Below, in pieces: positions 4,143 to 31,515 of a stretch of 64,000 nt of DNA. Origin of the DNA: a virus; the IMG/VR virus record IMGVR_UViG_3300045997_000112, positions 1 through 64,000 of that record; one strand, written 5' to 3'. Position numbers and translations under genes: made by a program. The notes below the pieces were generated by a model that saw nothing but the letters and a program-made list of their open reading frames with translations, ran no database searches and was not told the DNA's origin. The first letter of the stretch is position 1; the number at the start of each line of letters is the position of its first letter.

Positions 4143-6200
4143 ATGATGGATTCCCGTCGCAACGCCGATCACGACATCGATCCGGCGATCGCGGCCCAAG
4201 GCAGAAGCCTCGGCCGCTACAACATCAGCTGGGCGCCCAAGAAGCAGAATGACGAGGCCCTGCGCGCCGTCACCAAGCAATGGGCCCAGGCCCTGGCCAA
4301 GGCGTGGAACGGTGGCCGCCCGGTCACCGTCAAGCACGGCAACGTTGGCGTGGGCGCCAGCACCACCACCGAGGATGACCTCGACATGATCTGGCTCGAC
4401 GACGCAGTGCTGCTGCCCCGTTCGGCCAAGGACCTCGCGGCTGCCGTCGGCATCGTGGTCCATGAGATCGGGCACCTGTTCTACACGCCCAAGCTCAGTG
4501 ACCGCTTCATCCAGGAGATCAACGCCCAGGGGCTGTTCCCGACCTTCAACATGGTCGAGGACGGCAAGCAGGAGATGAAGCTGCTGGCCTACCGGCCGGG
4601 CTTCGAGAAGTACCTGCGCTGGGCCATCCTGCGTCACCTGCTCGCCACCGTGCAGCCACAGACCATCCAGGCCCTGTACCCGGTCATCGCGGGGCGCACG
4701 TACCTCCCGGAGAACCTGAGGGCCAAGGCCCGAATGTTCTGCGCTATGGCATATGGCGACGACGTTGTCGATGAGTTCGACGACCTGCTGCAGGACTTCT
4801 ACGCCATTGACGTGTACGCCAACCCGATGGAGGCGGCCCAGATCATCTCCGACATCAAGAACCTGTTCCCCACTCAGGTGGGCTGCGGTTCGGCTCCCAC
4901 CAATGGGGACACCAAGGAGGACCCCAAGGACTGGAACCCGATCAAGGACCGCAAGAAGAAGTCCAAGAAGAAGGACAAGGACAAGGTCAGCAAGGACAAG
5001 GAGAAGAAGCCCGGGTCCGATGACGATGCCGAGCACGACGACCAGGAGAAGGACGCTGGCGGCGGCGACGAGGACATGGACTGGCTGGACGAGGACTTCG
5101 AGGAGGGTGAGGGCGAGGAGCAGGAGGGCGAGAAGGCCAAGGCCAAGTCCGATGCCGACCTCGACGTCTCCTCCGACTCTGACAGTGACGGTGACGGTGA
5201 CGAGGAGGACGAGAGCTCTGGCGAGTCCGAGGACGCCTCCAACGAGTCGGGTGGCGAGGGCGCTGGTGGTGCCTCCGATGCCCCGCCGCCGGATGCTCAG
5301 GGCGACGGGGGTGCTCCCGAGGAGAACTCCATCGCGCCCGAGGACCTGGGCACGCCCGAGGAGCTGCTGGAGAAGCTCCAGACCATGTCGGACTCGCTGC
5401 AGGACCGCATCGCCCAGGACTACGAGGAGGACTTCGAGCTGATCAAGTCCGAGGCGTTCGGCGATGGCAACATCCGCAAGCCGCTGTGGAACGAGACCGC
5501 CATGCAGCGCAACATGGTGGCGGCTCTCAAGCAGCTGGCCGAGCAGGCCAAGGGCGGGCTCGATCGTCGCCGTCCCAAGGGCAGGCTCAACGTTGGCCGC
5601 TATGCGCGTGGCCGGGACCGCATGGACATCGAGAAGATCGTGTTCGACAAGTTCCGTCCCAATGTTCAGGACGCGCTGGACATGGAGGTCGTCCTGCTCG
5701 TGGACAACTCCGGCTCCATCTACCACGTCCAGAACGAGCTCTCCGGCGTGATGTGGGCGCTGGTCACGGCGCTCGAGTCCGTCGGTGGTCCGGCTGTCAC
5801 CGTGGTGCTGTGGAACAGCAACTTCCAGCTCTGGAAGGTGCCCTCGGAGAAGTGGCGCGCCAAGTACGTGCCCACCATCCAGGCGACCGGTGGCACGTCT
5901 CCGGGTGAGGCCATCAAGTTCGCGGGCAAGCTGTTCAAGAACAGCCGCAAGAAGCAGAAGGTGTGCTTCATCCTCACCGACGGTTGGTGGTCCAACATGC
6001 AGGAGGCCAAGCTGCTGATCGAGGGCATGAAGAAGGCGTCCGACGTGGACACCTACATCCTCGGCTTCGGTGGCTTCGACCCGGCCAACATCAACGACTA
6101 CGGTGCCGTGGACGGCTCCGGGGGTGGCGTGGAGTCCGTGACCGACTTCATCTTCAAGGTGGTCGAGAAGCGCATTCAGCAGAAGATCGCCAACAGCTGA
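4143..6200 (+). CDS. CobT-like vWA domain protein (partner of the AAA+ ATPase)
   Basis: N-terminal HEIGH...FNMVED, long acidic linker, MIDAS elements LLVDNSGS, GGT, LTDG. Confidence 0.87.
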   Translation: MMDSRRNADHDIDPAIAAQGRSLGRYNISWAPKKQNDEALRAVTKQWAQALAKAWNGGRPVTVKHGNVGVGASTTTEDDLDMIWLDDAVLLPRSAKDLAAAVGIVVHEIGHLFYTPKLSDRFIQEINAQGLFPTFNMVEDGKQEMKLLAYRPGFEKYLRWAILRHLLATVQPQTIQALYPVIAGRTYLPENLRAKARMFCAMAYGDDVVDEFDDLLQDFYAIDVYANPMEAAQIISDIKNLFPTQVGCGSAPTNGDTKEDPKDWNPIKDRKKKSKKKDKDKVSKDKEKKPGSDDDAEHDDQEKDAGGGDEDMDWLDEDFEEGEGEEQEGEKAKAKSDADLDVSSDSDSDGDGDEEDESSGESEDASNESGGEGAGGASDAPPPDAQGDGGAPEENSIAPEDLGTPEELLEKLQTMSDSLQDRIAQDYEEDFELIKSEAFGDGNIRKPLWNETAMQRNMVAALKQLAEQAKGGLDRRRPKGRLNVGRYARGRDRMDIEKIVFDKFRPNVQDALDMEVVLLVDNSGSIYHVQNELSGVMWALVTALESVGGPAVTVVLWNSNFQLWKVPSEKWRAKYVPTIQATGGTSPGEAIKFAGKLFKNSRKKQKVCFILTDGWWSNMQEAKLLIEGMKKASDVDTYILGFGGFDPANINDYGAVDGSGGGVESVTDFIFKVVEKRIQQKIANS

Positions 6201-6208
6201 GCGCGCGT

Positions 6209-6238
6209 GGAGCACTGGGGCGCAAGTCCCAGTGTTCC
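6209..6238 (+). terminator. 13-bp hairpin with GCAA tetraloop after vWA gene
   Basis: GGAGCACTGGGGC-GCAA-GTCCCAGTGTTCC; no U tract. Confidence 0.5.
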
Positions 6239-6274
6239 CCGGGCAACTCAGCCCAACCCAAAATTGAAGGAGCA

Positions 6275-7198
6275 ATGATGAGTACGGAGAAGACCCACAA
6301 CGACATCAAGGTCAAGACGGTCTATGTCTCTGGCAGCCAGCTGTACTACGTGCACGGGCGCTACGCCAAGGGCGAGACCCCCAAGCTGTCCGGCGATGCC
6401 ATCCAGATGCCCAAGGGCCTCGACACGATCTGCGGGCCCAACTGCGAGCTGCTCAAGGGCCAGGGGAGCTGCAAGACCCACGGCGGAGCGGGCAAGCTCA
6501 GCGTCTCGTTCAGCGGATCCACCGCCCCCATGGTCAGCTACGTGGTCAGCCAGATCGGTGTGTCCGTCGACAAGACCATGAACCAGCTGTGGACACTGAA
6601 CACCCAGCAGGTCACCTCCCGATCGGTGGGCAACATCCTCTACCTGCCGTCCCTCGACGACATGGAGTGGGACCGCACGGACTGGGAGCACAAGAACAAC
6701 CCCATCAACAACCTGCACGCGCACGTCTGGAACGTGCTGCGCCAGCCCCCGAGCAAGTCCTCCCAGCTGGAGAAGGTGGCCGCACACAACCACGAGCGAG
6801 CCAAGAAGCTGTTCGAGGACCTGGTCAAGAAGATGACCCCGGCCGACGTGAAGAGCGCCCAGTACAAGCAGGGCATCGACGTGTTCTCCAACCGGAACAA
6901 CTTCCTCGCCTCATTGATGGGGGCCGTCAACACCTACCAGGGCTACTCGGCCCTGCAGCCCGCGCAGACCGCGTTCATCCACTCGACCATCCTCAAGATG
7001 GGCCAGCGGCAGTTCCCGGATGACGTGGCCAAGATCCTCGACTGCTACAAGAAGGTCGAGCTGGCCAAGGCGCATGAGGACGTCCCGTTCACCTACGACG
7101 AGGCCACCGTCAAGCGCGTCATGCTGTCCGGTCTGTACAAGAAGCCGGTGGAGAAGCCCAAGGTCGACCTCGCCAACGCGGTCGCTCTCCCTTTCTGA
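6275..7198 (+). CDS. hypothetical protein (~307 aa)
   Basis: GAAGGAG RBS, strong codon bias. Confidence 0.8.
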   Translation: MMSTEKTHNDIKVKTVYVSGSQLYYVHGRYAKGETPKLSGDAIQMPKGLDTICGPNCELLKGQGSCKTHGGAGKLSVSFSGSTAPMVSYVVSQIGVSVDKTMNQLWTLNTQQVTSRSVGNILYLPSLDDMEWDRTDWEHKNNPINNLHAHVWNVLRQPPSKSSQLEKVAAHNHERAKKLFEDLVKKMTPADVKSAQYKQGIDVFSNRNNFLASLMGAVNTYQGYSALQPAQTAFIHSTILKMGQRQFPDDVAKILDCYKKVELAKAHEDVPFTYDEATVKRVMLSGLYKKPVEKPKVDLANAVALPF

Positions 7199-16689: not shown

Positions 16690-16882
16690 TGATGCTGCCC
16701 GCCTTCATCAGATCGTGGACGTACCCGCTGGTCATCACGATGTCTGACGCAACCGCCTCTCGCTGGGCGTCGAAGGGCAGGCGACTGATCACCTTCACCT
16801 CACCGCTGGGCATCATCACCACGGCATACACGTACACCGGGATGGGCTGCTCCTCAGTGGGCTGCTCGGGTGCCTCACTCAC
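16679..16882 (-). CDS. hypothetical protein
   Basis: overlap coupling. Confidence 0.65.
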   Translation of the reverse strand: MSEAPEQPTEEQPIPVYVYAVVMMPSGEVKVISRLPFDAQREAVASDIVMTSGYVHDLMKAGSINAE

Positions 16883-17060
16883 TGGGCACCTCCGCAGCCA
16901 TCAGCTCCAACCATGCACCGGGGGCGTAGAGATGCAGGATGGACCGGTTCTCCCCCATCAGCCACAGGGCGCCATCCTGCAGCTGGATGGAGTGCACGTC
17001 GTGGTAGTCATGAAGGTCCCCGTCGCTGTCCACGACGATGAACGATCCGGTCTCAGGCAT
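16875..17060 (-). CDS. hypothetical protein
   Basis: overlap coupling, RBS. Confidence 0.6.
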   Translation of the reverse strand: MPETGSFIVVDSDGDLHDYHDVHSIQLQDGALWLMGENRSILHLYAPGAWLELMAAEVPSE

Positions 17061-17217
17061 GGAACTCCTCGGCCTTCTTCTCGATGTAGCAGGTGCAGAC
17101 CTTGACTCGTGTCAACGCCTCGTACGCCAACGTGAGCTCCGCCTCGAGGTCCCGAACCTTCTTCTCCAGCTGACTGATCTTGGCGTCACGAACGTCCAAC
17201 GTTGAGTTCTGGATCAT
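17053..17217 (-). CDS. small coiled-coil protein (54 aa)
   Basis: ATGA coupling; MIQNSTLDVRDAKISQLEKKVRDLE. Confidence 0.6.
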   Translation of the reverse strand: MIQNSTLDVRDAKISQLEKKVRDLEAELTLAYEALTRVKVCTCYIEKKAEEFHA

Positions 17218-17708
17218 TGTGCCGCCATCTTCTCGTAGTGCAGGCGCACGGGGCAGAACGAACAGAGGTGGATCTTGGGGAGTGCGCGAGTGCTGAGCCC
17301 GGCCTCTTTGCGCTCGGCCGCCGTCTTGGGCTTCAGCTCCTTCTTCTCACTGTTGAAGTCACCGCAGCCACCCTTGGGGCGGTTGTGCGCCTTGAAGCAG
17401 ATGAGGGCGTCCTCCTTGAAGGTGTTCCGCACCTCGTAGAACGAGGGATCGAACGCGGCCAGACCCTCGTTGAACCCCATCATCTGCTTGATCAGGGTGT
17501 CCCGGGCCTCGGGCATCATCCAGATCCCAATGGGGAGCCTGAACAGCTGGCCCATGTGGTTGGGGTGCTCCTGCACGACGTACTCCAGGAACACGTCGTC
17601 ATCCGGATGGCCCTGGAAGTCCGGGAGCTCCTCGAGGTTCCGGCAGTCCCGGCAGACCAGGACGCGCATGTGTGGAGCATCAGCGTAAGCATCTGGAGCA
17701 ACAGTCAT
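17214..17708 (-). CDS. Cys/His-rich hypothetical protein
   Basis: LVCRDC..LEELP, C...H.RP..C, LCSFCPV; TAGCAT 7 nt before ATG. Confidence 0.75.
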   Translation of the reverse strand: MTVAPDAYADAPHMRVLVCRDCRNLEELPDFQGHPDDDVFLEYVVQEHPNHMGQLFRLPIGIWMMPEARDTLIKQMMGFNEGLAAFDPSFYEVRNTFKEDALICFKAHNRPKGGCGDFNSEKKELKPKTAAERKEAGLSTRALPKIHLCSFCPVRLHYEKMAAQ

Positions 17709-17736
17709 GGTTGGAATGCTACCCAACCTTTGGAGA

Positions 17737-17964
17737 TTAGCTACCGATGCCGGGGTACTTCTTCCGAACGGCGTTCTTGACGCGGCGCTGCTCCGCCTCG
17801 CTGCCATGCTTGGCCACCATCGCCAGCGCCAGGCGCGCGTGCTTCGCATCGGGGATCGGGTAGCTGCCCGGCTCCTTCTTGCCCTTGACCGACTTGGCCG
17901 CTGGCTTGTTGGCGAAATCAGACTTGGGGAGCTTCGCCCGCTCCGCTGCTGTGAGCCTGGCCAT
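17737..17964 (-). CDS. small basic protein
   Basis: LPKSDFA...SYPIPDAKHARLALA...V.KKYP motif. Confidence 0.75.
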   Translation of the reverse strand: MARLTAAERAKLPKSDFANKPAAKSVKGKKEPGSYPIPDAKHARLALAMVAKHGSEAEQRRVKNAVRKKYPGIGS

Positions 17965-17965
17965 G

Positions 17966-18166
17966 TCAGCGCCCCGGGCTGTCCTTGGACGGGGCCTCCT
18001 GCGAGGTGTACCCATCCCACATGTTCAGCGTGGCGCGATCGGCCAACGTTGCCGCCGTGTTCCGGCCCTGGGGATCCTCGGTGTCCGGCCGGGCGTAGAA
18101 GTACTTGCCCTCGGTGGTCCCCTTGAGGAGCGCGGCTTCCTTGCTGCGGGATGGTGCGTACGACAT
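17966..18166 (-). CDS. hypothetical protein
   Basis: AGGAG RBS. Confidence 0.65.
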   Translation of the reverse strand: MSYAPSRSKEAALLKGTTEGKYFYARPDTEDPQGRNTAATLADRATLNMWDGYTSQEAPSKDSPGR

Positions 18167-18174
18167 GCGATCTC

Positions 18175-18528
18175 CTAGAGGTTTCCGAAGGTGGCGTCAT
18201 AGTTCGAGTACGTGCTCGAGCTGTTGGTCTCCGGCGGTCCTCCGGAGTACCACGCCCCGGTGTTGGGCGGCTGGAACAGTTGGTCAACATTGAGGACGTC
18301 GTCTATCCCATAGGCACCGACCCGGTACCCGAACCGTGGCCTGAACAACCGGACAGTTGGCGGGACAGCTTGTGCGAGAAGGGCGTTCTGGAGGCGTTCT
18401 CCCGTTATTCGCTCAACATTGGAGCGATCGGGGCCCACCGCCTGGTTGGGCACACCCATTCCCTCATCGGGCATCCCCCATGGCTTTTCGGCATAGCGCC
18501 CGGATGCAGTGTTGCTGTTGGCAATCAC
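18175..18528 (-). CDS. hypothetical protein
   Basis: GTGA coupling. Confidence 0.6.
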   Translation of the reverse strand: MIANSNTASGRYAEKPWGMPDEGMGVPNQAVGPDRSNVERITGERLQNALLAQAVPPTVRLFRPRFGYRVGAYGIDDVLNVDQLFQPPNTGAWYSGGPPETNSSSTYSNYDATFGNL

Positions 18529-19905: not shown

Positions 19906-20823
19906 CTAACCCTCAACCGTGTTGGCGATCTCCTCGAGCCTCGCCGCCTGAGCTCGCAGCGCCTGAGCCTCGGTGCGGATGGCGGCCGCCGCCAGCGTCG
20001 TATCGGGAACGGTCGGGTGTACTGGCGGCGGGGTCACCGGGGGCGTCACCACCGGCGGGGTCACGACCGGAGGCGGGGTCACGACCTCAGGCGTCCGCTC
20101 CTCGGCCGCGTGGGCGTCGTAGATGCGCTTCAGCTCCGCGTCGGTGAGCACCCGGTTGAAGAACGCCACCCGACGGATGCGCCCCACTAGGAACCCGGTG
20201 CTGTCACCGCGCGTCCCGATGCACACCGGGGTGGAGGTGTTCGCCGGGACCGTCTTGTACGAGGTGAACATGTCCTTGTCCCGCTGGACCCCGTTGCAGT
20301 AGATCGCCGAGTACCCGGGCGTGGGCCCGCTGCCCTTGGTGGTGGCCACTCCACCGATGACCTGCTCGACATGCTCGGCCGCGTGCGGGTCCTGCACGTA
20401 CGACCCGGTGCCCAGGCCGCCGTTGGGCACGAAGTTGTAGAACGAGATGCGCCGCTTGCGCGCCGGGGCCTCGCCACCGCCACCGTCGATGTAGGTCCGG
20501 AACGTCCACTCGTGGGCGTTGGGCCTGCCCTTGCCCATCCAGTGCAGGTACTCGTTGTTGTTGGAGACCCGCTTCCAGTCATCCACCGTCAGGAAGGCGA
20601 TGATGGTCAGCTCCTTGGTGGTGGGCACCGAGAAGTCCGGGCTGTCCGCGAGCTCGATCCACGACCGGCCATCGAAGTGGGCACCGTCGGCAGCGAAGGT
20701 GACGTTGCCGTGGGCCACGCCGTCAATGTTGCCGATCACGTCCCGCGCCCGACCGACATCATCGAGGGGGTAGTAGTGCGTGAGACCCGGAATGGCCTTG
20801 ATGGTGTCCTGGAAGCTGGTCAT
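19906..20823 (-). CDS. LamG/concanavalin-A-like lectin-domain protein with Pro-rich linker and coiled-coil tail
   Basis: YYPLDD, AHFDG, IYCNG, VCIG, GRIRRVAFFNRVLT..E; (VVTPP)n; GGAG RBS before 20823. Confidence 0.8.
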   Translation of the reverse strand: MTSFQDTIKAIPGLTHYYPLDDVGRARDVIGNIDGVAHGNVTFAADGAHFDGRSWIELADSPDFSVPTTKELTIIAFLTVDDWKRVSNNNEYLHWMGKGRPNAHEWTFRTYIDGGGGEAPARKRRISFYNFVPNGGLGTGSYVQDPHAAEHVEQVIGGVATTKGSGPTPGYSAIYCNGVQRDKDMFTSYKTVPANTSTPVCIGTRGDSTGFLVGRIRRVAFFNRVLTDAELKRIYDAHAAEERTPEVVTPPPVVTPPVVTPPVTPPPVHPTVPDTTLAAAAIRTEAQALRAQAARLEEIANTVEG

Positions 20824-20981
20824 GGTGAAGGCTCCTATGGGTGAGTAGAAGAACTGTATCGGCTGGGGTTCGCAGCTGTCCCCGCCGATGTCAGCGCCCC
20901 CACCACCGTGTGTCTCCGGTGATGGGGGCGCCAACGTTGTGAGGATGAGGCCCGCTGCGAGTAGCCAGACCCACCTCAATC

Positions 20982-22055
20982 TCAGAGGCCGTCGGTGGCG
21001 CTGATCAAGGTAACGGTGTTCCCTGCGATGGTGATCTTGGCGGTTGCCGAGTTGTTGTTCTCGTTCGTCTCCTTCCAGAAGTTCTGCCAGTCAGCAGTGA
21101 CCTTCACGGTGTATGTGTCATCAGGAAGGGTGGTGATGTCAATGGCCTGATCCGGAAGCGTTGCCGGGTAGGTGTCCGACCATCCGACCGACAACCCGTG
21201 CATGATGCTCGTCGCGTTCGGGTCCCCGACACCGCAGACGTTGTCGTGGGTGTAGACCGGGTTCAGGGGCGACGCCGGGTAGCTGGGGTTGCCCGGCCAG
21301 TTCCGGTACGAGGTGTTGTCCTCGAAGCAGAACCCATGCTTCTCGCCGTCGCGGAGCTTCTTCCCGTTCTTGTTGTAGATCTCGTAGGCGTCGAAGTCCT
21401 TGATGTGCCAGTGCGTGTGCCCGTCACCCGCGTAGTAGAAGGTGGCCGCAGCTGCCGGAAGCGTCTTCTTGGTGCCGTCCGACATGTACACGACCTGGTT
21501 GGCGACCCAATCCGTCGAGGTGGACGAGGAGCGCTTGCCCAGGATCTCGAGTGGGCCCTTGCCCACGTTGGCGGTCACACCCGGGAACTTGAGCAGCTTC
21601 TTGCCGCCGGTGTTGACGATGGTGAACTGACGCAGGGTGCGGATGCCCGTGTCCGGCAGGAGCTCGGTGGCGCCCGACGGCGGGGGCGGCGGAGTGCCTC
21701 CGATGGTGACGGTGGCGCCCACCTTGGCGTTGGCCTTGAGCCACGTCCTCGACGTGCCATGCCCGGAGAGCACATACCCGTTGGCGGGGATGGCCATGTT
21801 GCCAACGCCATCCTCGGCCTTGGTGATGACACCCCCCACCACAGCGGCCTCGTACCCGTAGATGTTGGTCCCCGTGGTGGCCCCGTAGGCGGGGGTGTAC
21901 TGCACGAAGGCGTTGGTGGACCGGTAGACGTTGACCCCGGTCAGCGCGAGCGTCTGCCCATTGATGGTGACGTCGTTGGCCGCTGCCTGTGCTGGGGCGA
22001 CGGACATCCCCAGAATCACGGCCATGGCAGCGAATAGAACGGATAGCTTCCTCAT
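20982..22055 (-). CDS. secreted lysyl-oxidase-family copper amine oxidase
   Basis: Signal peptide ending AQA; NVGKGP; Cu site HTHWH; GEKHGFCFED (LTQ Lys); GLSVGWSDTY (LTQ Tyr); QAIDIT; ETNENNN. Confidence 0.88.
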   Translation of the reverse strand: MRKLSVLFAAMAVILGMSVAPAQAAANDVTINGQTLALTGVNVYRSTNAFVQYTPAYGATTGTNIYGYEAAVVGGVITKAEDGVGNMAIPANGYVLSGHGTSRTWLKANAKVGATVTIGGTPPPPPSGATELLPDTGIRTLRQFTIVNTGGKKLLKFPGVTANVGKGPLEILGKRSSSTSTDWVANQVVYMSDGTKKTLPAAAATFYYAGDGHTHWHIKDFDAYEIYNKNGKKLRDGEKHGFCFEDNTSYRNWPGNPSYPASPLNPVYTHDNVCGVGDPNATSIMHGLSVGWSDTYPATLPDQAIDITTLPDDTYTVKVTADWQNFWKETNENNNSATAKITIAGNTVTLISATDGL

Positions 22056-23398: not shown

Positions 23399-23553
23399 GA
23401 GTTCCCCTTGTACTTGTTGTTGCGGGTCTTGAACCGGTACCCGACGACCACGATGACCGCCGTGAGCACGAACACGGCGATGATGAAGCCCTGACCGATC
23501 TGGATGGGGCCCACGTTGAACGCCCCCCGGGCCACGGGGCAGAACGCCGTCAC
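23395..23553 (-). CDS. small single-pass membrane protein
   Basis: GTGA coupling on both sides; hydrophobic helix followed by basic tail. Confidence 0.6.
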   Translation of the reverse strand: MTAFCPVARGAFNVGPIQIGQGFIIAVFVLTAVIVVVGYRFKTRNNKYKGNS

Positions 23554-24815
23554 AGCTTGTGGACCTTGTCGGCACCCTGCGGGTAGACGTTGCGGGTGTC
23601 CAGGATCTGCTCCGCGTTCTCGTGGATGAGACCCCAATCGAAGACCGCATGGTCCGTGAGCACGATCACCAGATCGAACGACCCGGCGGCCTTGGCGGCA
23701 AGCTCGGCGTCGCTGATCGAGTAGACGTGGGGATCGGACACCGTGACATCCGCACCGGCCTCCCGGAGCAGGCGCACCACCTCCAGCGCCGGGGACTCCC
23801 GGGTGTCGGCAACATTGGGCTTGTAGGCCACCCCGAGGCACAGGATGCGCGCCTGCCACAGCTTGATGTCCCGCTCCGCGAGCAGCGACCTCGATCGGCA
23901 CACGACATGTCCGGGCATCCCGTTGTTGATCTCGTCGGCCAGCTCGGCGAACTTGAACGCCTTGCCGTGATGGTTGCGCCGCATCCAGGTCAGGTACAGC
24001 GGGTCCACCGCGATGCAGTGCCCGCCCACACCTGGTCCCGGCCGGAACCGCATGATGGCGTGGCCCTTGGTGGCCGCCGCGTCGAGGACCTCGTCCACGT
24101 CCAGCCCCAGCTCGGAGCACACCACGGCCATCTCGTTGACCAGGGCGATGTTGACCTGGGCGAACGTGTTCTCGAACACCTTGGCCAGCTCGGCGGCACG
24201 GGGGCTGGAGACCGGGACCACGGTGTCTACCAACGTCGAGTAGAACTCCTGAACCTGAGCCAACGCCTCGTCACCCAGTCCCGACACGATCTTCGGGATG
24301 CGCTGAAAGGTGTTGACCTTGTCCCCTGGGTTGATCCGCTCGGGGCTGTACCCGATCTCGTAGTCCCGCTCCGGACGCATCCCGTTGACGTACCCGATGG
24401 TCTGGACCACGACATCCTCAGTGGTGCCGGGGTAGGTGGTGGACTCCAGCACGATCAGCTCCCCGCCACGCATGTGCTTGGCGATGAAGGAGGCGGCGCT
24501 CTTGATGTAGGTCAGGTCCGGATGCTTGAGCTCATCCACCGGGGTGGGCACCGTGATCAGTGCGATGTCGAATGGCTGGTGGGGCGCCACGAACTCGGTG
24601 TACGCCGTGTCGGTGTACGCCTTGAACCACCCACTGCGCTGCATCTTGGCCAGGCGCTCGTCGGACACGTCCTCGACATAGGACTGCTCGTTGTGCAGGG
24701 CGTCGATCTTGCTCTTGTCCACGTCGACGCCGACGACAACGTGACCGGCCTCAGCCGCTCGGATGGCGATGGGCAGACCGACGTAGCCCATGCCGACGAT
24801 CAGGACGTTACTCAC
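23550..24815 (-). CDS. UDP-N-acetylhexosamine dehydrogenase (WecC/WbpA type)
   Basis: GMGYVGLP, VPTP, ESTTYPGTT, SPERINPG, AE.AKVFENT, PGPGVGGHCI, GVAYK..V.DTRESP. Confidence 0.93.
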   Translation of the reverse strand: MSNVLIVGMGYVGLPIAIRAAEAGHVVVGVDVDKSKIDALHNEQSYVEDVSDERLAKMQRSGWFKAYTDTAYTEFVAPHQPFDIALITVPTPVDELKHPDLTYIKSAASFIAKHMRGGELIVLESTTYPGTTEDVVVQTIGYVNGMRPERDYEIGYSPERINPGDKVNTFQRIPKIVSGLGDEALAQVQEFYSTLVDTVVPVSSPRAAELAKVFENTFAQVNIALVNEMAVVCSELGLDVDEVLDAAATKGHAIMRFRPGPGVGGHCIAVDPLYLTWMRRNHHGKAFKFAELADEINNGMPGHVVCRSRSLLAERDIKLWQARILCLGVAYKPNVADTRESPALEVVRLLREAGADVTVSDPHVYSISDAELAAKAAGSFDLVIVLTDHAVFDWGLIHENAEQILDTRNVYPQGADKVHKL

Positions 24816-24900
24816 TGCGCTTCTCCTCCTTGCCGCAGATGATGCAGAACTGCTGCACACCTTTTCGGCTGAACACCATGCAACCTCGCTTGCACTTCAC
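24808..24900 (-). CDS. 30-aa zinc-ribbon microprotein
   Basis: GTGA coupling; CKRGC...CIIC. Confidence 0.45.
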   Translation of the reverse strand: MKCKRGCMVFSRKGVQQFCIICGKEEKRSE

Positions 24901-25538
24901 TGTTCCTCCAACATGACGAGCTCGATGGGGTTGTCGTAGTCCATGAGCAGGGTGACGATGCTGTCGTTCGTGGTGGCGTGATGCCGCGACCACTCGACCT
25001 TGATCCCCGCTTCCTCGAAGATGGTGGTGTCCCCCATGTATGCCCTGGCTCCGGTTCCGGAGAGGTAGACGTCCATCTGGGGGTAGGCACGGAAGGTGCT
25101 GAGAAGGCCCTCGGCCTTGGTCCCGATGGAGTCCAGACCGAGAGCGAACGGGGTAGTGATACCCAGAAGATCCCGCACGTACACGAGCAGGTCAAGATTG
25201 AACTGCCAGAGGTAGGGGCTCTCGAGGCTCATCGCGTAGTCCACGAGATCCGCCCCGCGCGTCTTGTAGTGGGGCGCCCCGGAGTACCGGCCGTGCATGA
25301 TCTTGGGGAACATCTCCCGGAACTTGGGGATGTCGAGCATGACCTCATTGATGGGCTCGTAGCGGTACTTCTGTGCCAATGGCAGAGTGCACCAGTTGTC
25401 CCGCATCATCACGCGGCGCTGGTAGCCGCGCTCGTGGAGCTGGGCCCGGTAGCGGATGTCCATGATGTCTGCGCGGGCGGTCTTGTACCAGAACCGCGAG
25501 TTGGGCAAGAAGTTCGGCTGATGTCCGGCGACGATCAT
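24897..25538 (-). CDS. WbqC-like protein (putative glycyl transferase)
   Basis: HQPNFLP, Y..APHY, YLSGTGARAY, SIV.LL. Confidence 0.87.
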   Translation of the reverse strand: MIVAGHQPNFLPNSRFWYKTARADIMDIRYRAQLHERGYQRRVMMRDNWCTLPLAQKYRYEPINEVMLDIPKFREMFPKIMHGRYSGAPHYKTRGADLVDYAMSLESPYLWQFNLDLLVYVRDLLGITTPFALGLDSIGTKAEGLLSTFRAYPQMDVYLSGTGARAYMGDTTIFEEAGIKVEWSRHHATTNDSIVTLLMDYDNPIELVMLEEQ

Positions 25539-26155
25539 GAGCGCACCTCACGAACCACGGCGAACTGCTCGGCGAAGGGCAGGTTGCGCCCGGACCCGAT
25601 CCAGCGACCGTGCTCGAATGCCAGCTTGGCGGGATCGAATGACCCGTTGGCCTGGGACTCGTACGCCCGGATGGCGGCCATCTTGGTCTCCATCTGCGCC
25701 TCGGTCAGTCCCTCGAACCGGTTCCACTGGTAGGGGATGGTGTAGAGGTCCGTGGTGTAGCTGGGGATCTCGTACAGCAGGACCGTGGGCACGTACCAGG
25801 CGTCCTTGTTGGTGTAGGACAACCGTGAGGCGCGGATCCCGGCCTCGTAGGCGGCGATGTGGTCCTGATGGGCGCCCGGGGTGGGCAGGTAGATCTCGAC
25901 CGGCTGGAGCGCACTGATGACTGAGTCCAGCCAGGTGACGAGCATCCGGGCGTTGCCCGTGAGCGTTCCGGTTTGGAACTCCGCGAGGTAGGTGCGCTCG
26001 TACCCCAAGATTCCCTTGGCGCGGTAGTACTCCTCCATCCTCCCGTCTCCCTTGTCGGAGAGGATGGCGACGGCGATGTCCTGTGGATCCTTGGCGATGA
26101 GCCCTCCACAGCCGAGAACCTCGTCGTCGGCGTGTGGCGATACGATCAACTTCAT
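25535..26155 (-). CDS. PIG-L/LmbE family N-deacetylase
   Basis: SPHADDEVLGCGG, HQDH, K..AI..Y.SQ, AEQF. Confidence 0.92.
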   Translation of the reverse strand: MKLIVSPHADDEVLGCGGLIAKDPQDIAVAILSDKGDGRMEEYYRAKGILGYERTYLAEFQTGTLTGNARMLVTWLDSVISALQPVEIYLPTPGAHQDHIAAYEAGIRASRLSYTNKDAWYVPTVLLYEIPSYTTDLYTIPYQWNRFEGLTEAQMETKMAAIRAYESQANGSFDPAKLAFEHGRWIGSGRNLPFAEQFAVVREVRS

Positions 26156-26471: not shown

Positions 26472-27047
26472 CTACTCCCTGAACTTCGGATCGGACAACT
26501 TCTCGATCACGGACTTCTCCACTGCGCCTTGTGGTACCCCACGAACGATACGGGCAATCCCGTACGCGTCGATGGCATTGTCGTTGGGGATGTCCACGCC
26601 GTACCTCTTGTACGCCGCCAAGAGCATATGGCTCTTCTGTGAAGACTTCGCGTTCCCGATCACGAACTTCTTCAGGGTGAGGGGCGGAACGATCAGGGGC
26701 TGATGGGCGTGCTCGAACAGGGTCACCTTGACCACCCCGGCGAGCTCTCCCAACACTGAGGCGCTGGCCGAGTGCACGACAGTGCCCTCCATGGCCACGT
26801 CGTCGTAGTTCCACCCCTTCAGCACCAGCTGCAGGTACTGCTTGATCTCGAACAGCCGCTCAGCGCCCCGGGCCTTCGACTGGAGCACCCCGATCTCGTA
26901 GTGGTCGAAGGAGTCCAACGCGCAAACCGCAAACCCGGTCAGAGATTGGTCGATGCCCAGCCAGATGCCCTCCTCATCATTGAGGCCAGCGCCGTCATGG
27001 TTGGTGTACTGCTGCACGACGGGCTTGCTGATGACGCTCACCTTCAT
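26472..27047 (-). CDS. ruvC: RuvC-like Holliday junction resolvase
   Basis: LGIDQSLT, VAMEG, LGELAG, P.TLKKF..G, DNAIDA. Confidence 0.88.
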   Translation of the reverse strand: MKVSVISKPVVQQYTNHDGAGLNDEEGIWLGIDQSLTGFAVCALDSFDHYEIGVLQSKARGAERLFEIKQYLQLVLKGWNYDDVAMEGTVVHSASASVLGELAGVVKVTLFEHAHQPLIVPPLTLKKFVIGNAKSSQKSHMLLAAYKRYGVDIPNDNAIDAYGIARIVRGVPQGAVEKSVIEKLSDPKFRE

Positions 27048-27355
27048 CGAGGATCCACCCGCGCCACGCAGATATCGGATCCACCGTTCAGACCGGTCCA
27101 CGTACCGCCGCTGGTGAGGCATGCCAGCTCCGCCTTCTGGCCACGGTTCCCGGCGTCCTGCTGCCAGAAGAACACCAGCGCCGCGACGATGCCCACGACC
27201 AGCACGATGCCGAAGCCCCACATGAACGCGACGAGCCGCTCGGTCAGGTTGTCCCGGCGTCTCCGGTCCACGTCCTCCTTGAGCGAGGCCATCCGGTACT
27301 CGTGGTCCCGTTCCTGCTGGACCCAGTCCCCATCGACACTGCTCATGGCTGCCAC
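27044..27355 (-). CDS. membrane protein
   Basis: single TM, C...GG.W...C tail. Confidence 0.65.
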   Translation of the reverse strand: MAAMSSVDGDWVQQERDHEYRMASLKEDVDRRRRDNLTERLVAFMWGFGIVLVVGIVAALVFFWQQDAGNRGQKAELACLTSGGTWTGLNGGSDICVARVDPR

Positions 27356-28019: not shown

Positions 28020-28162
28020 CGTCCTCCTCGGAACGCAGTGACCTCGAGGGCCACATGGAAGTTGTGGTGCTGGAAGGGGTCCCGGATGAGCGCCCCGCAC
28101 TTCTTGCACACCCACCAGTCCGGGTGTCCCTCCAGGACGATGTGACTGTTCGCCCACTCCAT
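28016..28162 (-). CDS. C2H2-type microprotein
   Basis: CKKCGALI...H..FH; coupled on both sides. Confidence 0.6.
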   Translation of the reverse strand: MEWANSHIVLEGHPDWWVCKKCGALIRDPFQHHNFHVALEVTAFRGGR

Positions 28163-28902
28163 CAGTACGCCTCGCAAGGGCAGTCATCGGCGAACGAGCA
28201 GACCGGCGGGGAGCTCACCAGCACCCCGTCGTGGTCAGGGAACAAGGTGGCCAGCTTCTCGAGCGTGACGGCGATCCAGTCCTCGTCGTACTTGGCCGTG
28301 AACTCCCGGGCCGCCTGGTCCTCCTTGCACTCGTACAGGAAGATCAGGTCCTCGAGATCCGGGAAGGGTCCCTGGCGCAGGACCCAGGCGTAGAACATCG
28401 CCTGACGCATGTGATCGTTGAACGGCCGCGTGATCATTCGGAACGAGGCGCTCAACCCTCCCTGGATCGGGAAGTTGTTCATCCGCAGGGTGCCGAGACC
28501 GATCGACTTGATCTCCAGCAGGTAGGGCTTGTCGACGAACACCACCCCATCGGCCCGGCCGTCCACCCGATAGTTCGGGTACTTCACCGGCACCTCGGCA
28601 CCGATCAGGATCTCAGCGCCCTCCAGCCAACGTTGCCACTTCTCGTGGATGGCATGGCCCTCCTCGAAGATGGAGAGCATCTGCATCCCGGGCTTGGCCT
28701 CAACCTTGGTGTGGCCCGAGAGCAGGTACCACCCCTCGCGGGGGCACCACGAGGGCTTGGTGATCTCTGATGGATGAAGGACATCCGAGGCCCTGGGATC
28801 TCGAGGCTGGCTGAGCAGGTACCGCTCAACTAGCCCAAGCATCACCGTCGGCTTCTTCTTCGTCTCCAGGTGCTTCCTCAAGCTGTTCTTCGCCTGCGCC
28901 AT
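28162..28902 (-). CDS. Cas4-like PD-(D/E)xK exonuclease
   Basis: HPSE...CPR, GHAIH, GRADG, LEIKS, Q...Y, C-terminal Cys cluster. Confidence 0.85.
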   Translation of the reverse strand: MAQAKNSLRKHLETKKKPTVMLGLVERYLLSQPRDPRASDVLHPSEITKPSWCPREGWYLLSGHTKVEAKPGMQMLSIFEEGHAIHEKWQRWLEGAEILIGAEVPVKYPNYRVDGRADGVVFVDKPYLLEIKSIGLGTLRMNNFPIQGGLSASFRMITRPFNDHMRQAMFYAWVLRQGPFPDLEDLIFLYECKEDQAAREFTAKYDEDWIAVTLEKLATLFPDHDGVLVSSPPVCSFADDCPCEAY

Positions 28903-29200
28903 CGAGTAGTCCCAACCTCTCAAGGTCCTCACGGGTCACGTAGTCCGGCAGGTCCTTGCGCCGATGGAGTGTCTTGCGCTCCCGCGAGGACATCCCTCCC
29001 CAGACCCCGTGCTGGTCTGGCATGACTAGAGCATATAGCAGGCATTCTCTAATGACTGGACACCTAGGGTTCCCCAACGTTGGATTCCCATGGCATACCG
29101 CACGGGCCTGGTCAGCGTGCTTCGAGTACGTGGAATCCCGGGGCGGGTAGAACAGCTCGGTATCGTGCCCATCACACTTCGCCTGCTCCTGCCATGCCAT
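28826..29200 (-). CDS. whiB: WhiB family transcription factor
   Basis: W...AKC...D.ELFYP, C...CPV..ECL.YAL, GVWGG...RER. Confidence 0.93.
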   Translation of the reverse strand: MAWQEQAKCDGHDTELFYPPRDSTYSKHADQARAVCHGNPTLGNPRCPVIRECLLYALVMPDQHGVWGGMSSRERKTLHRRKDLPDYVTREDLERLGLLDGAGEEQLEEAPGDEEEADGDAWAS

Positions 29201-29520: not shown

Positions 29521-31515
29521 CTACGAGTTGCTGACCACCCTGCCCGCTCCATCGGCGGATGCGCTCCAGGTGTTGTCCCGACATTGATAGTTGGAGACCG
29601 TACCCGACGGAGCCGCTTCCGACCCGTGGATCCGGTTCCCGTCCTTCCCGGTGTAGTTGGCGTTCCCGATGAGTCCCCAGAAGTTGTTGGCGTTGACCTG
29701 CAGGGTGTCCACGTCGTTGCACCGGATCAGCCAGGTGGCCTGAGCTGCACCCACGGTGGCGGTGAACTTGTTGCCCCAGACGTAGAAGCCCGAGATCCGG
29801 CCGCCGGTGTTGTCGTTCACGTCGGTGTCCAGCCATGGGTAGTTCTTGGACACCCACCCACCGGCATGGTTCTTCATGTGCCCGTTCGCGGTGAACGTGT
29901 TGTCGTGGACGAAGATGCTGTGCTGGGTCTGCGGGACGTTCGATCGGCTCTCGAAGGCGAACCCCCGAACATTGTGGTTGAAGTGGTTGGCCTTGACCTG
30001 CACCTCCCGGAAGGCGATGAGGTGCACCGTCCCTCGAGAGGCCATGGTCGCCGACATGATGGTGTCGCTGCCCGGGTTGGAGCAGGCACCCACCTGGTCG
30101 AAGTGGTTGCCGTCGATCCGGATGTGCGAGTGGAGCTGGCTCAGACCTGGGTCGCCCACGCTGTACTTGTGGTTGCCGATGCTCGTCGGGTACGGGTATG
30201 TCCTCCAGCGCCGGAAGTGGCAGCCCCGGATCAGAATGTTGTGGCACACCGTGCCATCCGGATAGGTGCCCGCAGCCGTCGCGCCGTCCCAGGCGTAGTC
30301 GAAGTGCACCGCCTCGTCGTAGCCGGTGTCCCGAGGCGTCTGGTCCATGCCCGAGAACGTGCACCCGATGATCTTGATCTTGAAGTCCGAGTCGGCCATG
30401 TTCCGGACATCGCCGCCGTACGCCGCGCTGCCCGAGGAGTTGATCTCGATCCCGTGGCCCTTGGTGGTGGTGTTCCAGATGTGGGCGCCCTCAAGGTGGA
30501 ACGAGGGACAGTGCGAGATGGACCACGCGGTGCTCTTGGAGTTCCACTGGTCGAAGGCCCCGCCGTACCAGACGATGCCCCCGGCCCGGTTGTACCCGCC
30601 GTCGCCACGCGCCCCGTAGTTGGTCCGGTTGTCGTTGAAGAACTGGATGTTCTGGAAGGTGGCGGCGTTCGCATCCACCGTGATGCCACCCGGAACTCGA
30701 ACGGAGCTCGGGTTGCCTCCGTAGAAGGTGCCCCCGAGTCGAGCCTTCTTGTGCGCCGAGTTGTACGCCGCGTCCAAGCACGCCTGGATGGTCTGGGCGT
30801 TGCCCCCCGAGAGGGCCGTCACCTCGGTTGCCACTGGGATAGCGGTCACGGTGATGGGCACGGGCGCCGAGGTGGTCGATGCGCCGCCGTAGAGCTTGTT
30901 GGCGCGCACCCGCCACTGCCACGCCCCTGGCGTGTTGACGGTCCATGACTTGGTCTTGGCCGGGGAGGCGGTGTCCTGTCCAGCCCAGTACGTCCAGCCA
31001 CCACCGGGGGGCAGGTACTCCCAGGAGTAGGAGGACACCAGAGCGGGGGCCCCTGCGGTGGCCGTGAGGGTGACCACGGTCCCGTCCTGTGCCGAGGACG
31101 CTGAGATGCTCATGGACAGGGTCATGTGGGTGACCGTCGTGTCCACCGGAGCTGACTCGACCCGAGTGCCGTCGTATTGGATAGCGACGACCTTCCACTG
31201 CCACGCTCCCGGGCCCCAGGCCGTCCACGCGAACGAGGCGCCCAAGGGCCCGTGCTGGACCCAGGCACCACCGGGAACCTTGTACCACCACTCGTAGCTC
31301 TCCACGAATGATGGGATAGAAGGCACGGCGGTGTAGGTGACGCTGGCGCCCTCTGCGAGGGAGGCGACACTGGCCGAAATGGCCACGGTGCACCGGGCCA
31401 GTGATGTCCAGGTCCCGCCCTGGAACCGCTGGATGGACTTCACCGGACGGTACCCACCGTTGTACGCCTGGACGCTCTTCACATCCGAGTAGGTGCCGCC
31501 CAAGAAGCCCTTCAT
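29521..31515 (-). CDS. right-handed beta-helix (pectate-lyase-like) protein with two Ig/FN3-like repeats; putative depolymerase
   Basis: Two ~95-aa W-rich repeats (SY.W.Y..PGG.W...PGAWQW.V.A), IQACLDAA cap, HGIEINS, repeated I..N.F rungs. Confidence 0.75.
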   Translation of the reverse strand: MKGFLGGTYSDVKSVQAYNGGYRPVKSIQRFQGGTWTSLARCTVAISASVASLAEGASVTYTAVPSIPSFVESYEWWYKVPGGAWVQHGPLGASFAWTAWGPGAWQWKVVAIQYDGTRVESAPVDTTVTHMTLSMSISASSAQDGTVVTLTATAGAPALVSSYSWEYLPPGGGWTYWAGQDTASPAKTKSWTVNTPGAWQWRVRANKLYGGASTTSAPVPITVTAIPVATEVTALSGGNAQTIQACLDAAYNSAHKKARLGGTFYGGNPSSVRVPGGITVDANAATFQNIQFFNDNRTNYGARGDGGYNRAGGIVWYGGAFDQWNSKSTAWSISHCPSFHLEGAHIWNTTTKGHGIEINSSGSAAYGGDVRNMADSDFKIKIIGCTFSGMDQTPRDTGYDEAVHFDYAWDGATAAGTYPDGTVCHNILIRGCHFRRWRTYPYPTSIGNHKYSVGDPGLSQLHSHIRIDGNHFDQVGACSNPGSDTIMSATMASRGTVHLIAFREVQVKANHFNHNVRGFAFESRSNVPQTQHSIFVHDNTFTANGHMKNHAGGWVSKNYPWLDTDVNDNTGGRISGFYVWGNKFTATVGAAQATWLIRCNDVDTLQVNANNFWGLIGNANYTGKDGNRIHGSEAAPSGTVSNYQCRDNTWSASADGAGRVVSNS

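Follow-up and report, generated by a model that had tools for sequence, protein, structure and literature searches.

The analysis of a 64,000-nucleotide stretch of viral DNA (positions 1 to 64,000 of the IMG/VR record IMGVR_UViG_3300045997_000112; hereafter the window) showed that the product of the gene at 20982-22055 is a member of the lysyl oxidase (LOX) family with all catalytic residues intact, and that the record bearing it is a tailed phage. On the same strand and directly upstream of the LOX gene lie the genes for a PIG-L/LmbE-family deacetylase, a WbqC-family protein, a nucleotide-sugar dehydrogenase and a membrane polysaccharide synthase of the GT2 type, with LOX as the last gene of the series, and the LOX protein itself begins with a domain found mainly on glycan-active enzymes. 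LOX enzymes convert primary amines into aldehydes that go on to cross-link of their own accord; H2O2 and NH3 are formed besides. We consider that the phage enzyme may act in this way on the polymer specified by its own operon.

The LOX reading frame starts with ATG, and its GC content at third codon positions (GC3, 0.88) is typical for genes of the record's genome. The Pfam model Lysyl_oxidase (PF01186) scored 53.7 bits on the translation (E 2.7e-14; gathering score 20.4), and a profile built from 22 homologues found human LOXL2 (5ZE3) as the sole strong match in the PDB (E 2.3e-10). The motifs HTHWH, GEKHGFCFED and GWSDTY occupy residues 213-217, 237-246 and 291-296, respectively. In the profile alignment, H213, H215 and H217 are paired with the LOXL2 residues H626, H628 and H630, K239 with K653, and Y296 with Y689; chain indices were converted to LOXL2 residue numbers, and the roles of the residues were taken from the structure paper (PMC5899467). 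These five residues, as well as C243, which is aligned with LOXL2 C657, are invariant both in 22 close relatives and in 15 distant ones represented by bacterial LOX domains 37-51% identical. Of the calcium ligands of LOXL2 (D549, L550, E722, D724, N727 and N728), E722, N727 and N728 are aligned with E329, N334 and N335, again invariant in both alignments, while N331 stands in place of D724, and D135, at the start of the structural alignment, is the probable counterpart of D549.

The AlphaFold2 (AF2) model of the protein, derived from the homologue alignment, has a mean predicted local distance difference test score (pLDDT) of 83.4, with low confidence (below 50) only at residues 1-25 and 120-127, that is, in the signal peptide and the proline linker. 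Foldseek ranked LOXL2 first for this model (E 3e-8). The superposition of residues 131-357 on LOXL2 545-750 gave a VIA-align Z of 16.3 with a root-mean-square deviation (rmsd) of 2.3 A over 174 residues, LOXL2 being the top VIA match of the predicted catalytic domain by a wide margin. The N-terminus consists of MRK, 17 hydrophobic residues and AQA-A (mean Kyte-Doolittle hydropathy 2.4), and the relatives have equivalent N-termini; it reads as a Sec-type signal peptide, and the protein is thus predicted to be secreted. The original prediction, made from the letters alone, had named the gene a viral lysyl oxidase with a copper-binding His triad, with the Lys and Tyr that form lysine tyrosylquinone (LTQ), and with a signal peptide followed by a domain of about 100 residues and a poly-Pro linker. 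The family assignment holds both in the Pfam comparison and in the predicted structure, the motif residues map onto their LOXL2 counterparts, and the N-terminal features lie where they had been placed, the domain at approximately 26-120 and the PPPPP linker in the low-confidence segment 120-127. With these residues retained, the protein may well be a copper- and LTQ-dependent amine oxidase.

The whole record comprises 105,425 bp and is rated complete by CheckV. It encodes a large terminase, a portal protein, collagen-like tail fibres, an M23/transglycosylase tail lysin, DNA polymerase A, helicases and RecA, and the host of the phage is soil actinobacteria. No integrase, tyrosine recombinase or serine recombinase was found in the record, which makes the phage probably virulent and leaves lysogenic conversion unsupported.

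A phage LOX with a possible glycan-targeting domain had been described as unusual, and in the database searches LOX is indeed very rare in viruses. A tblastn search with the LOX protein matched none of the 50,697 deposited phage genomes in INPHARED, the same collection contained no DNA match to 19-25 kb of the window, and the GT2 protein had there a sole match, a 31%-identical glycosyltransferase of Streptomyces phage Kromp. PHROGs hold no family for LOX, GT2 or most of their neighbours. Two pattern scans of the 2.9 million IMG/VR contigs yielded only two other LOX carriers. One of them (G004/L002, IMGVR_UViG_3300043313_001192) is a 176,996-bp phage with direct terminal repeats and two LOX genes. 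Its cassette is expanded and runs through WbqC, dehydrogenase, a CE4 polysaccharide deacetylase, GT2, a LamG protein bearing the same N-terminal domain as the LOX in the window (hereafter the N-domain), a Pro-rich protein, a PKD-PKD-CE4-LysM protein also bearing the N-domain, another LamG protein and the two LOX paralogues, followed by DNA polymerase A. The other carrier (L091, IMGVR_UViG_3300022562_001652; 113,815 bp) encodes at 5704-6333 a compact 209-aa LOX that matches PF01186 with 98.7 bits. This protein has the motifs HGHVH, HKQSFCLRD and the mammalian-like CQWLDVTD together with a lipoprotein-like N-terminus (LAAC), and its gene adjoins RusA, with no glycan genes near.

The LOX gene is tightly joined to the gene before it: its start codon overlaps the GT2 stop codon in a 4-bp ATGA, behind a strong GAGGAG ribosome-binding site. 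The GT2 translation shows a QRTRW motif with flanking hydrophobic segments and passes the Pfam cutoffs for general GT2 families and for Chitin_synth_2, whereas its scores against NodC (83.8 bits, cutoff 550) and PgaC (53.3 bits, cutoff 422) stay below the equivalog level. Judging by its sequence, it is a synthase of the same kind as NodC, PgaC and the class I hyaluronan synthases (HAS), and none of these named enzymes. For the dehydrogenase, the closest NCBIfam equivalogs are the WecC-type enzymes and TviB, both under their cutoffs.

To find related loci, we scanned one genome per prokaryotic species, which gave 72 LOX loci, and compared the phage proteins with them by tblastn. The order PIG-L, WbqC, dehydrogenase, GT2, LOX was found in Nocardioides rubriscoriae (L003) and in four loci of metagenome-assembled genomes (MAGs; L004, L008, L009 and L050); L006, a locus whose upstream end is truncated, agrees with them in gene order. 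In Aeromicrobium sp. Root472D3 (L005), the genes run WbqC-dehydrogenase-GT2-LOX, and PIG-L and a second WbqC lie downstream of LOX. Between the dehydrogenase and GT2 genes, the bacterial and G004 cassettes hold a gene for a cytoplasmic CE4 deacetylase (342 aa), and the phage cassette is without it. LOX is the best-conserved gene of the cassette, with 60-68% identity to the bacterial proteins vs. 33-52% for the others (47-51% for GT2), and the full-length bacterial orthologues, annotated as lysyl oxidase family proteins, agree with the earlier remark that prokaryotic homologues are known. No phage gene besides those of the cassette matched the bacterial LOX loci, and the bacterial cassettes are flanked by genes for a LuxR response regulator, GlmS and HflX. 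Such chromosomal flanks indicate that the bacterial cassettes are chromosomal operons and not prophages, and a prophage origin was therefore rejected. Since this glycan operon of six genes, with LOX as its last and translationally coupled one, is shared with Nocardioidaceae chromosomes, the phage copy is best understood as a captured host module and not as a phage invention.

The maximum-likelihood tree is in line with this origin. The phage LOX and its 95%-identical twin (P0002), which resides on another metagenomic contig of 9.8 kb, nest within a clade of 54 rows (SH-aLRT 98), where the named genomes are all Nocardioidaceae or Nocardioides-like MAGs. The exception is L008, a MAG titled Sphingomonas paucimobilis that stands beside N. 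rubriscoriae in the tree and is probably mis-binned. Homologues of WbqC and LOX also occur on metagenome contigs of the same sizes. Both LOX genes of G004 fall into a separate paralogue group that is present in the same bacterial genomes (SH-aLRT 99). The LOX genes of the two phages thus belong to different groups, which implies at least two acquisitions by phages from Nocardioidaceae; the LOX of L091 probably represents a third origin. Within the family of N. rubriscoriae, 2 of the 121 sampled genomes have a close copy of the cassette-type LOX, and 17 have any LOX at E<=1e-15, so the cassette-type LOX is an accessory gene there. In Marmoricola sp. RAF53 (L007:2944-9014), one orthologue of full length, comprising the N-domain and LOX with 65% identity, is not part of a glycan cassette; an aldehyde dehydrogenase, a saccharopine dehydrogenase and a class III aminotransferase are encoded around it, which resembles a context of lysine or amine catabolism.

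The N-domain, of about 95 residues, has the signature YTP..G..TGTN..G.E.....IP..G.VLSGHG...WL. It matched nothing in Pfam even at E 10 and nothing in NCBIfam, and a search of the ESM Atlas gave no usable match. When 1.84 billion representative proteins were searched exhaustively with HMMER, by contrast, it was found in 954 of them at E<=1e-3, often in tandem and in up to 10 copies per protein. Among 57 sampled carriers, its partners were GHL10 (24), CE4 polysaccharide deacetylase (10), GHL6 (9), GH18 (8) and DUF4015 (8), further GH66 and GH26, and Amidase_2 and LOX once each. NAGPA-like proteins also carry the domain. The predicted fold matches internal domains of two uncharacterised structures, 5h3k (Z 13.3, rmsd 2.1 A, 95 residues) and 6ozd (Z 12.5), the latter sharing with it the signature P.NGYVL.G.G.S..WL. 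The 5h3k protein is, as we assume, Slr0280, and a literature search on that name was uninformative. The N-domain is therefore an accessory module of glycan-active enzymes, in agreement with the original impression that it resembles domains attached to glycoside hydrolases, and its partner enzymes suggest a carbohydrate-binding role; in the proteins that it accompanies it resembles a carbohydrate-binding module, with no match to a curated family. It is also present on a LamG protein beside the N. rubriscoriae cassette, and the G004 cassette, as noted above, has it on a LamG protein and on the PKD-CE4-LysM protein. Its recurrence on several secreted cassette proteins is what would be expected of a shared module that targets them to one target.

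A clue to the possible substrate came from the WbqC protein. Its AF2 model, built with 37 homologues, is of high confidence (pLDDT 95.4), and the structural search placed BshC (4wbd) first, with Z 13.5 and rmsd 3.0 A over 204 of the 213 residues. The class I lysyl-tRNA synthetase 1irx came second (Z 10.8), followed by other class I synthetases (Z up to 7.5) and MshC (6.2). Foldseek also ranked BshC first, though weakly. PDB searches with the single WbqC sequence and with its profile returned nothing meaningful and no match to 4wbd, so that WbqC, a member of PF08889, is not of the BshC family by sequence, and the likeness, seen in a predicted model, is one of fold only. A literature search found no functional study of WbqC. 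In the bacillithiol and mycothiol pathways, a GlcNAc derivative is first deacetylated by an enzyme of the PIG-L type, and the amine thus exposed is joined to an amino acid by BshC or MshC (PMC4360819). By analogy, PIG-L and WbqC of the cassette may turn an N-acetyl sugar into an N-aminoacyl sugar, the aminoacylation step being suggested by the fold resemblance of the modelled WbqC. The four enzymes encoded upstream of LOX have no signal peptides, which implies that the sugar would be modified as a nucleotide sugar, before polymerisation and export. More generally, the modelled fold suggests that the WbqC proteins of O-antigen and capsule loci may be amino-acid ligases acting on amino sugars.

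Taken together, the results allow us to propose the following mechanism. A virulent tailed phage of about 105 kb would have captured the operon from Nocardioidaceae. During infection, the dehydrogenase, PIG-L and the BshC-like WbqC would act on a UDP-HexNAc so that the sugar is oxidised, loses its N-acetyl group, probably receives an amino acid and ends up with a free primary amine. The membrane GT2 synthase would polymerise this amine-bearing sugar and extrude the polymer from the infected cell. The secreted LOX would then dock through its N-domain on this polymer, a glycan of the HexNAc type, and oxidise its amines to aldehydes with release of H2O2 and NH3, and the aldehydes would condense spontaneously with nearby amines, leaving the infected cell under a coat of covalently cross-linked polymer. 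The phage might benefit by the exclusion of other phages or because the envelope is held together. We assign a probability of about 0.5 to the mechanism as a whole, in which LOX docks on the polymer of its operon and oxidises the amines to cross-linking aldehydes. A narrower and clearly more doubtful form of it specifies a glycan with an amide-linked amino acid that offers the free primary amine, possibly lysine, cross-linked by LOX via allysine-type aldehydes and thereby armouring or sealing the phage-infected cell. Lysine is a candidate because the two best folds for WbqC are BshC, which aminoacylates GlcN, and class I lysyl-tRNA synthetase.

Several points weigh against the proposed mechanism. 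All chemistry that goes past the family membership of LOX and its intact residues is inferred. In a hexosamine with no change other than de-N-acetylation, the amine is borne by a secondary carbon and would be a poor fit for LOX, and the mechanism thus depends on the putative aminoacylation step. The link between WbqC and BshC is purely structural, with no sequence signal, and the ligase activity of BshC itself had not been demonstrated in vitro by 2015 (PMC4360819). To this should be added the missing 342-aa CE4 deacetylase, the orthologue of Marmoricola, whose position outside the cassette hints at free-amine catabolism, and the viral LOX of L091, which stands alone.

Among other explanations, it might be supposed that LOX acts on the host cell wall, with peptidoglycan or a glycopolymer of the wall as the ligand of the N-domain and free amines of peptide stems or bridges (e.g., N-terminal glycine) as the substrate to be oxidised, with the effect that wall cross-linking is altered or receptors are masked during infection. 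The predicted export of LOX would permit this, prokaryote-type LOX oxidises glycine and varied amines (PMC6452851), and the N-domain occurs also with Amidase_2 and on the LysM-bearing CE4 protein of G004, both of them peptidoglycan-related. We nevertheless regard this explanation as unlikely: it leaves the coupled and syntenic link to the polymer synthase operon without a reason, and GHL10 and GHL6, the commonest partners of the N-domain, are not established peptidoglycan enzymes. Somewhat less probable still is a secreted enzyme that generates H2O2 or scavenges soluble amines such as lysine and polyamines, yielding peroxide or ammonia of use for killing competitors, for dispersal or for nutrition. 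The unrelated bacterial lysine epsilon-oxidases offer a parallel for such a peroxide generator. The Marmoricola orthologue among its catabolic genes and the L091 LOX with no glycan genes nearby fit this role, as does the relaxed specificity of the archaeal HTU-LOX toward small amines (PMC6452851). It is opposed by the targeting domain shared with glycan enzymes and by the operon position, which both favour a polymer-bound substrate, and peroxide release has no evident value for a lytic phage.

The phage also encodes two tail-fibre proteins with long G-X-Y runs and repeated GPKGD, and LOX could be imagined to cross-link these collagen-like fibres as animal LOX does collagen. We consider this very improbable: LOX bears a signal for export, whereas phage particles are put together in the cytoplasm; bacteria carry this cassette on their chromosomes with no shared phage genes near it; and phages commonly have collagen-like fibres (many PHROG families) but hardly ever LOX. 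The GPKGD fibres are a curious find beside a lysyl oxidase and probably unrelated to it. An equally slim chance is left to a passive or inactive passenger, LOX-like in sequence and functionless in the phage. The gene was indeed acquired horizontally, and close cassette-type copies are as rare in the host family as stated above (2 of 121 genomes). However, the reading frame is intact with a phage-like codon bias (GC3 0.88), all catalytic residues and the aligned calcium-site residues are kept, translation is coupled to that of the GT2 gene, another contig holds a 95%-identical copy, and LOX is the most conserved of the cassette genes.

The phage protein resembles LOXL2 (5ZE3) and the other animal enzymes in its fold, the H-x-H-x-H copper site, the Lys and Tyr of LTQ, the Cys next to this Lys and, in the alignment, most calcium ligands, and, as predicted, in being secreted. 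It differs from them in that it is only about 23% identical, lacks SRCR domains and a propeptide, keeps at most one of the five disulfides of the catalytic domain, and has instead an N-terminal glycan-enzyme module, its gene lying in a polysaccharide operon of an organism that has no collagen or elastin matrix. The orthologues of Nocardioides, Aeromicrobium and Marmoricola agree with it in their entire domain architecture at 60-68% identity. LOX homologues of bacteria and archaea became known in 2015, and the phage protein is a clear member of their family; the survey of Grau-Bove et al. described them mostly as bare domains and left viruses and phages unmentioned (PMC4448552). The LOX of Haloterrigena turkmenica (HTU-LOX) is active in vitro, sensitive to beta-aminopropionitrile (BAPN) and acts on a broad range of primary amines, including aminoglycosides (PMC6452851). 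Our literature search found no paper on a phage LOX, on its fusion to a glycan module or on the operon context, although such absence is no proof. What appears new is thus the carriage by a phage, the fusion to a glycan-enzyme module, and the placement in an operon with a deacetylase, a BshC-like protein, a dehydrogenase and a synthase.

Two other systems invite comparison. Cells infected with chloroviruses extrude hyaluronan or chitin by means of HAS or chitin synthase (CHS) together with UDP-glucose dehydrogenase and glutamine:fructose-6-phosphate amidotransferase (GFAT) (PMC5408694). Here too, a lytic virus has a processive membrane GT2 synthase and a nucleotide-sugar dehydrogenase, and the bacterial cassette adjoins GlmS/GFAT; in contrast, the host of the phage is bacterial, and its dehydrogenase is of the UDP-HexNAc type. 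The chlorovirus trio of HAS or CHS, dehydrogenase and GFAT is not known to include a deacetylase, a BshC-like protein or an oxidase, all of which are added in the phage. With BshB/BshC and MshB/MshC, the phage shares the pairing of a PIG-L/LmbE deacetylase with a protein of the class I aminoacyl-tRNA synthetase (aaRS)-like fold. Unlike these pairs, the phage pair stands beside a polymer synthase rather than in a thiol pathway, WbqC has 213 aa vs. 540 in BshC and no sequence similarity to it, and PIG-L scores far under the equivalog cutoffs.

The features of the locus are collected in Table 1. The hairpin downstream of LOX probably marks the end of the operon, as a terminator or a stability element: the RNA fold of 20824-20984 (-) reaches -78.9 kcal/mol (z -4.8), and none of 200 shuffles was as good. 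For the LamG gene that follows, TTG at 20979 was considered as the start and rejected in favour of ATG 20823, given the AGGAG before this ATG and the start of the homology to the L002 copies, which begins at residue 53. A sigma-70 promoter scan of 17-28 kb found none, as expected for the GC content and the host type, and the terminator-like matches in a scan of the same region were no better than in shuffles.

Table 1. Features of the LOX operon, of the LOX protein and of neighbouring genes. Coordinates are those of the window unless a handle precedes them.
Feature	Coordinates	Strand	Basis and remarks
PIG-L/LmbE-family deacetylase (BshB-like)	25535..26155	-	PF02585; best NCBIfam BshB1, BshB2, far below cutoffs
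WbqC-family protein, BshC/class I aaRS-like predicted fold	24897..25538	-	PF08889; AF2 model
Nucleotide-sugar 6-dehydrogenase, UDP-ManNAc/UDP-GlcNAc dehydrogenase-like	23550..24860	-	Pfam; TIGR03026 380.8 bits
Processive membrane GT2 synthase, NodC/PgaC/chitin-synthase-like	22052..~23398	-	Pfam GT2 families, Chitin_synth_2; start codon uncertain
LOX gene (P0001)	20982..22055	-	357 aa; translation, PF01186, ATGA overlap, GAGGAG Shine-Dalgarno
Predicted Sec-type signal peptide, residues 1-24	21984..22055	-	MRK, hydrophobic core, AQA-A; by inspection
N-domain, residues 26-120, glycan-active-enzyme accessory module	21696..21980	-	954 proteins, fold matches; no Pfam family
Pro-rich linker TPPPPPS	21675..21695	-	sequence; pLDDT <50 at residues 120-127
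LOX catalytic domain, residues 128-357	20985..21674	-	LOXL2 superposition and Foldseek
Copper-binding H213-T-H215-W-H217	21405..21419	-	aligned to LOXL2 H626/H628/H630; invariant
K239, LTQ lysine precursor	21339..21341	-	aligned to LOXL2 K653; invariant
Y296, LTQ tyrosine precursor and fourth metal ligand	21168..21170	-	aligned to LOXL2 Y689; invariant
Perfect 19-bp GC-rich hairpin, no U-tract	20890..20935	-	~50 nt past LOX stop, between LOX and LamG
LamG (concanavalin-like) protein, downstream of LOX	19906..20823	-	PF13385; AGGAG before ATG 20823
Collagen-like tail fibres, GPKGD-rich	G000 78241-80559, 80845-82299 (L075:14241-16559, 16845-18299)	-	sequence

On its other side, the cassette borders on replication genes and is embedded in an early/replication block rather than among structural genes. 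The gene at 26472-27221 (-) encodes a RuvC-like resolvase (E 2e-4, just below the Pfam cutoff), and that at 28162-28932 (-) a Cas4-like nuclease (29 bits, cutoff 65). The gene at 29521-31515 (-), 3.4 kb from the cassette and among recombination genes, encodes a protein of 664 aa with a weak match to a PHROG tailspike (E 1.8e-7) and no Pfam family; this protein could be a depolymerase for the phage-made polymer.

The one characterised prokaryotic LOX was called 'cryptic' (PMC6452851). The locus described here makes the native role of prokaryotic LOX testable, as a conserved operon also specifies the candidate substrate polymer, the putative targeting domain of LOX is common to other proteins of the same operon type, and cultured bacterial carriers exist (N. 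rubriscoriae DSM 23986 and Aeromicrobium sp. Root472D3). The operon with LOX suggests a phage-made, chemically cross-linked surface coat, which would bring to phages what chloroviruses exemplify, a polysaccharide coat made by a virus, with an oxidative cross-linking step added. LOX genes travel in viruses, as seen in three viral contigs of at least two, and probably three, separate origins, and this bears on the debated horizontal history of the family (PMC4448552). The work also brings out two uncurated items, namely a widespread accessory domain of glycan enzymes with no Pfam family and, from modelling, a BshC/aaRS-like fold for WbqC. If the aminoacyl-glycan form of the mechanism is true, the system would be a prokaryotic, glycan-based counterpart of the cross-linking of collagen and elastin, and it would provide the first native substrate for a prokaryotic LOX, a function for WbqC and a possible vehicle for the patchy horizontal spread of LOX genes.

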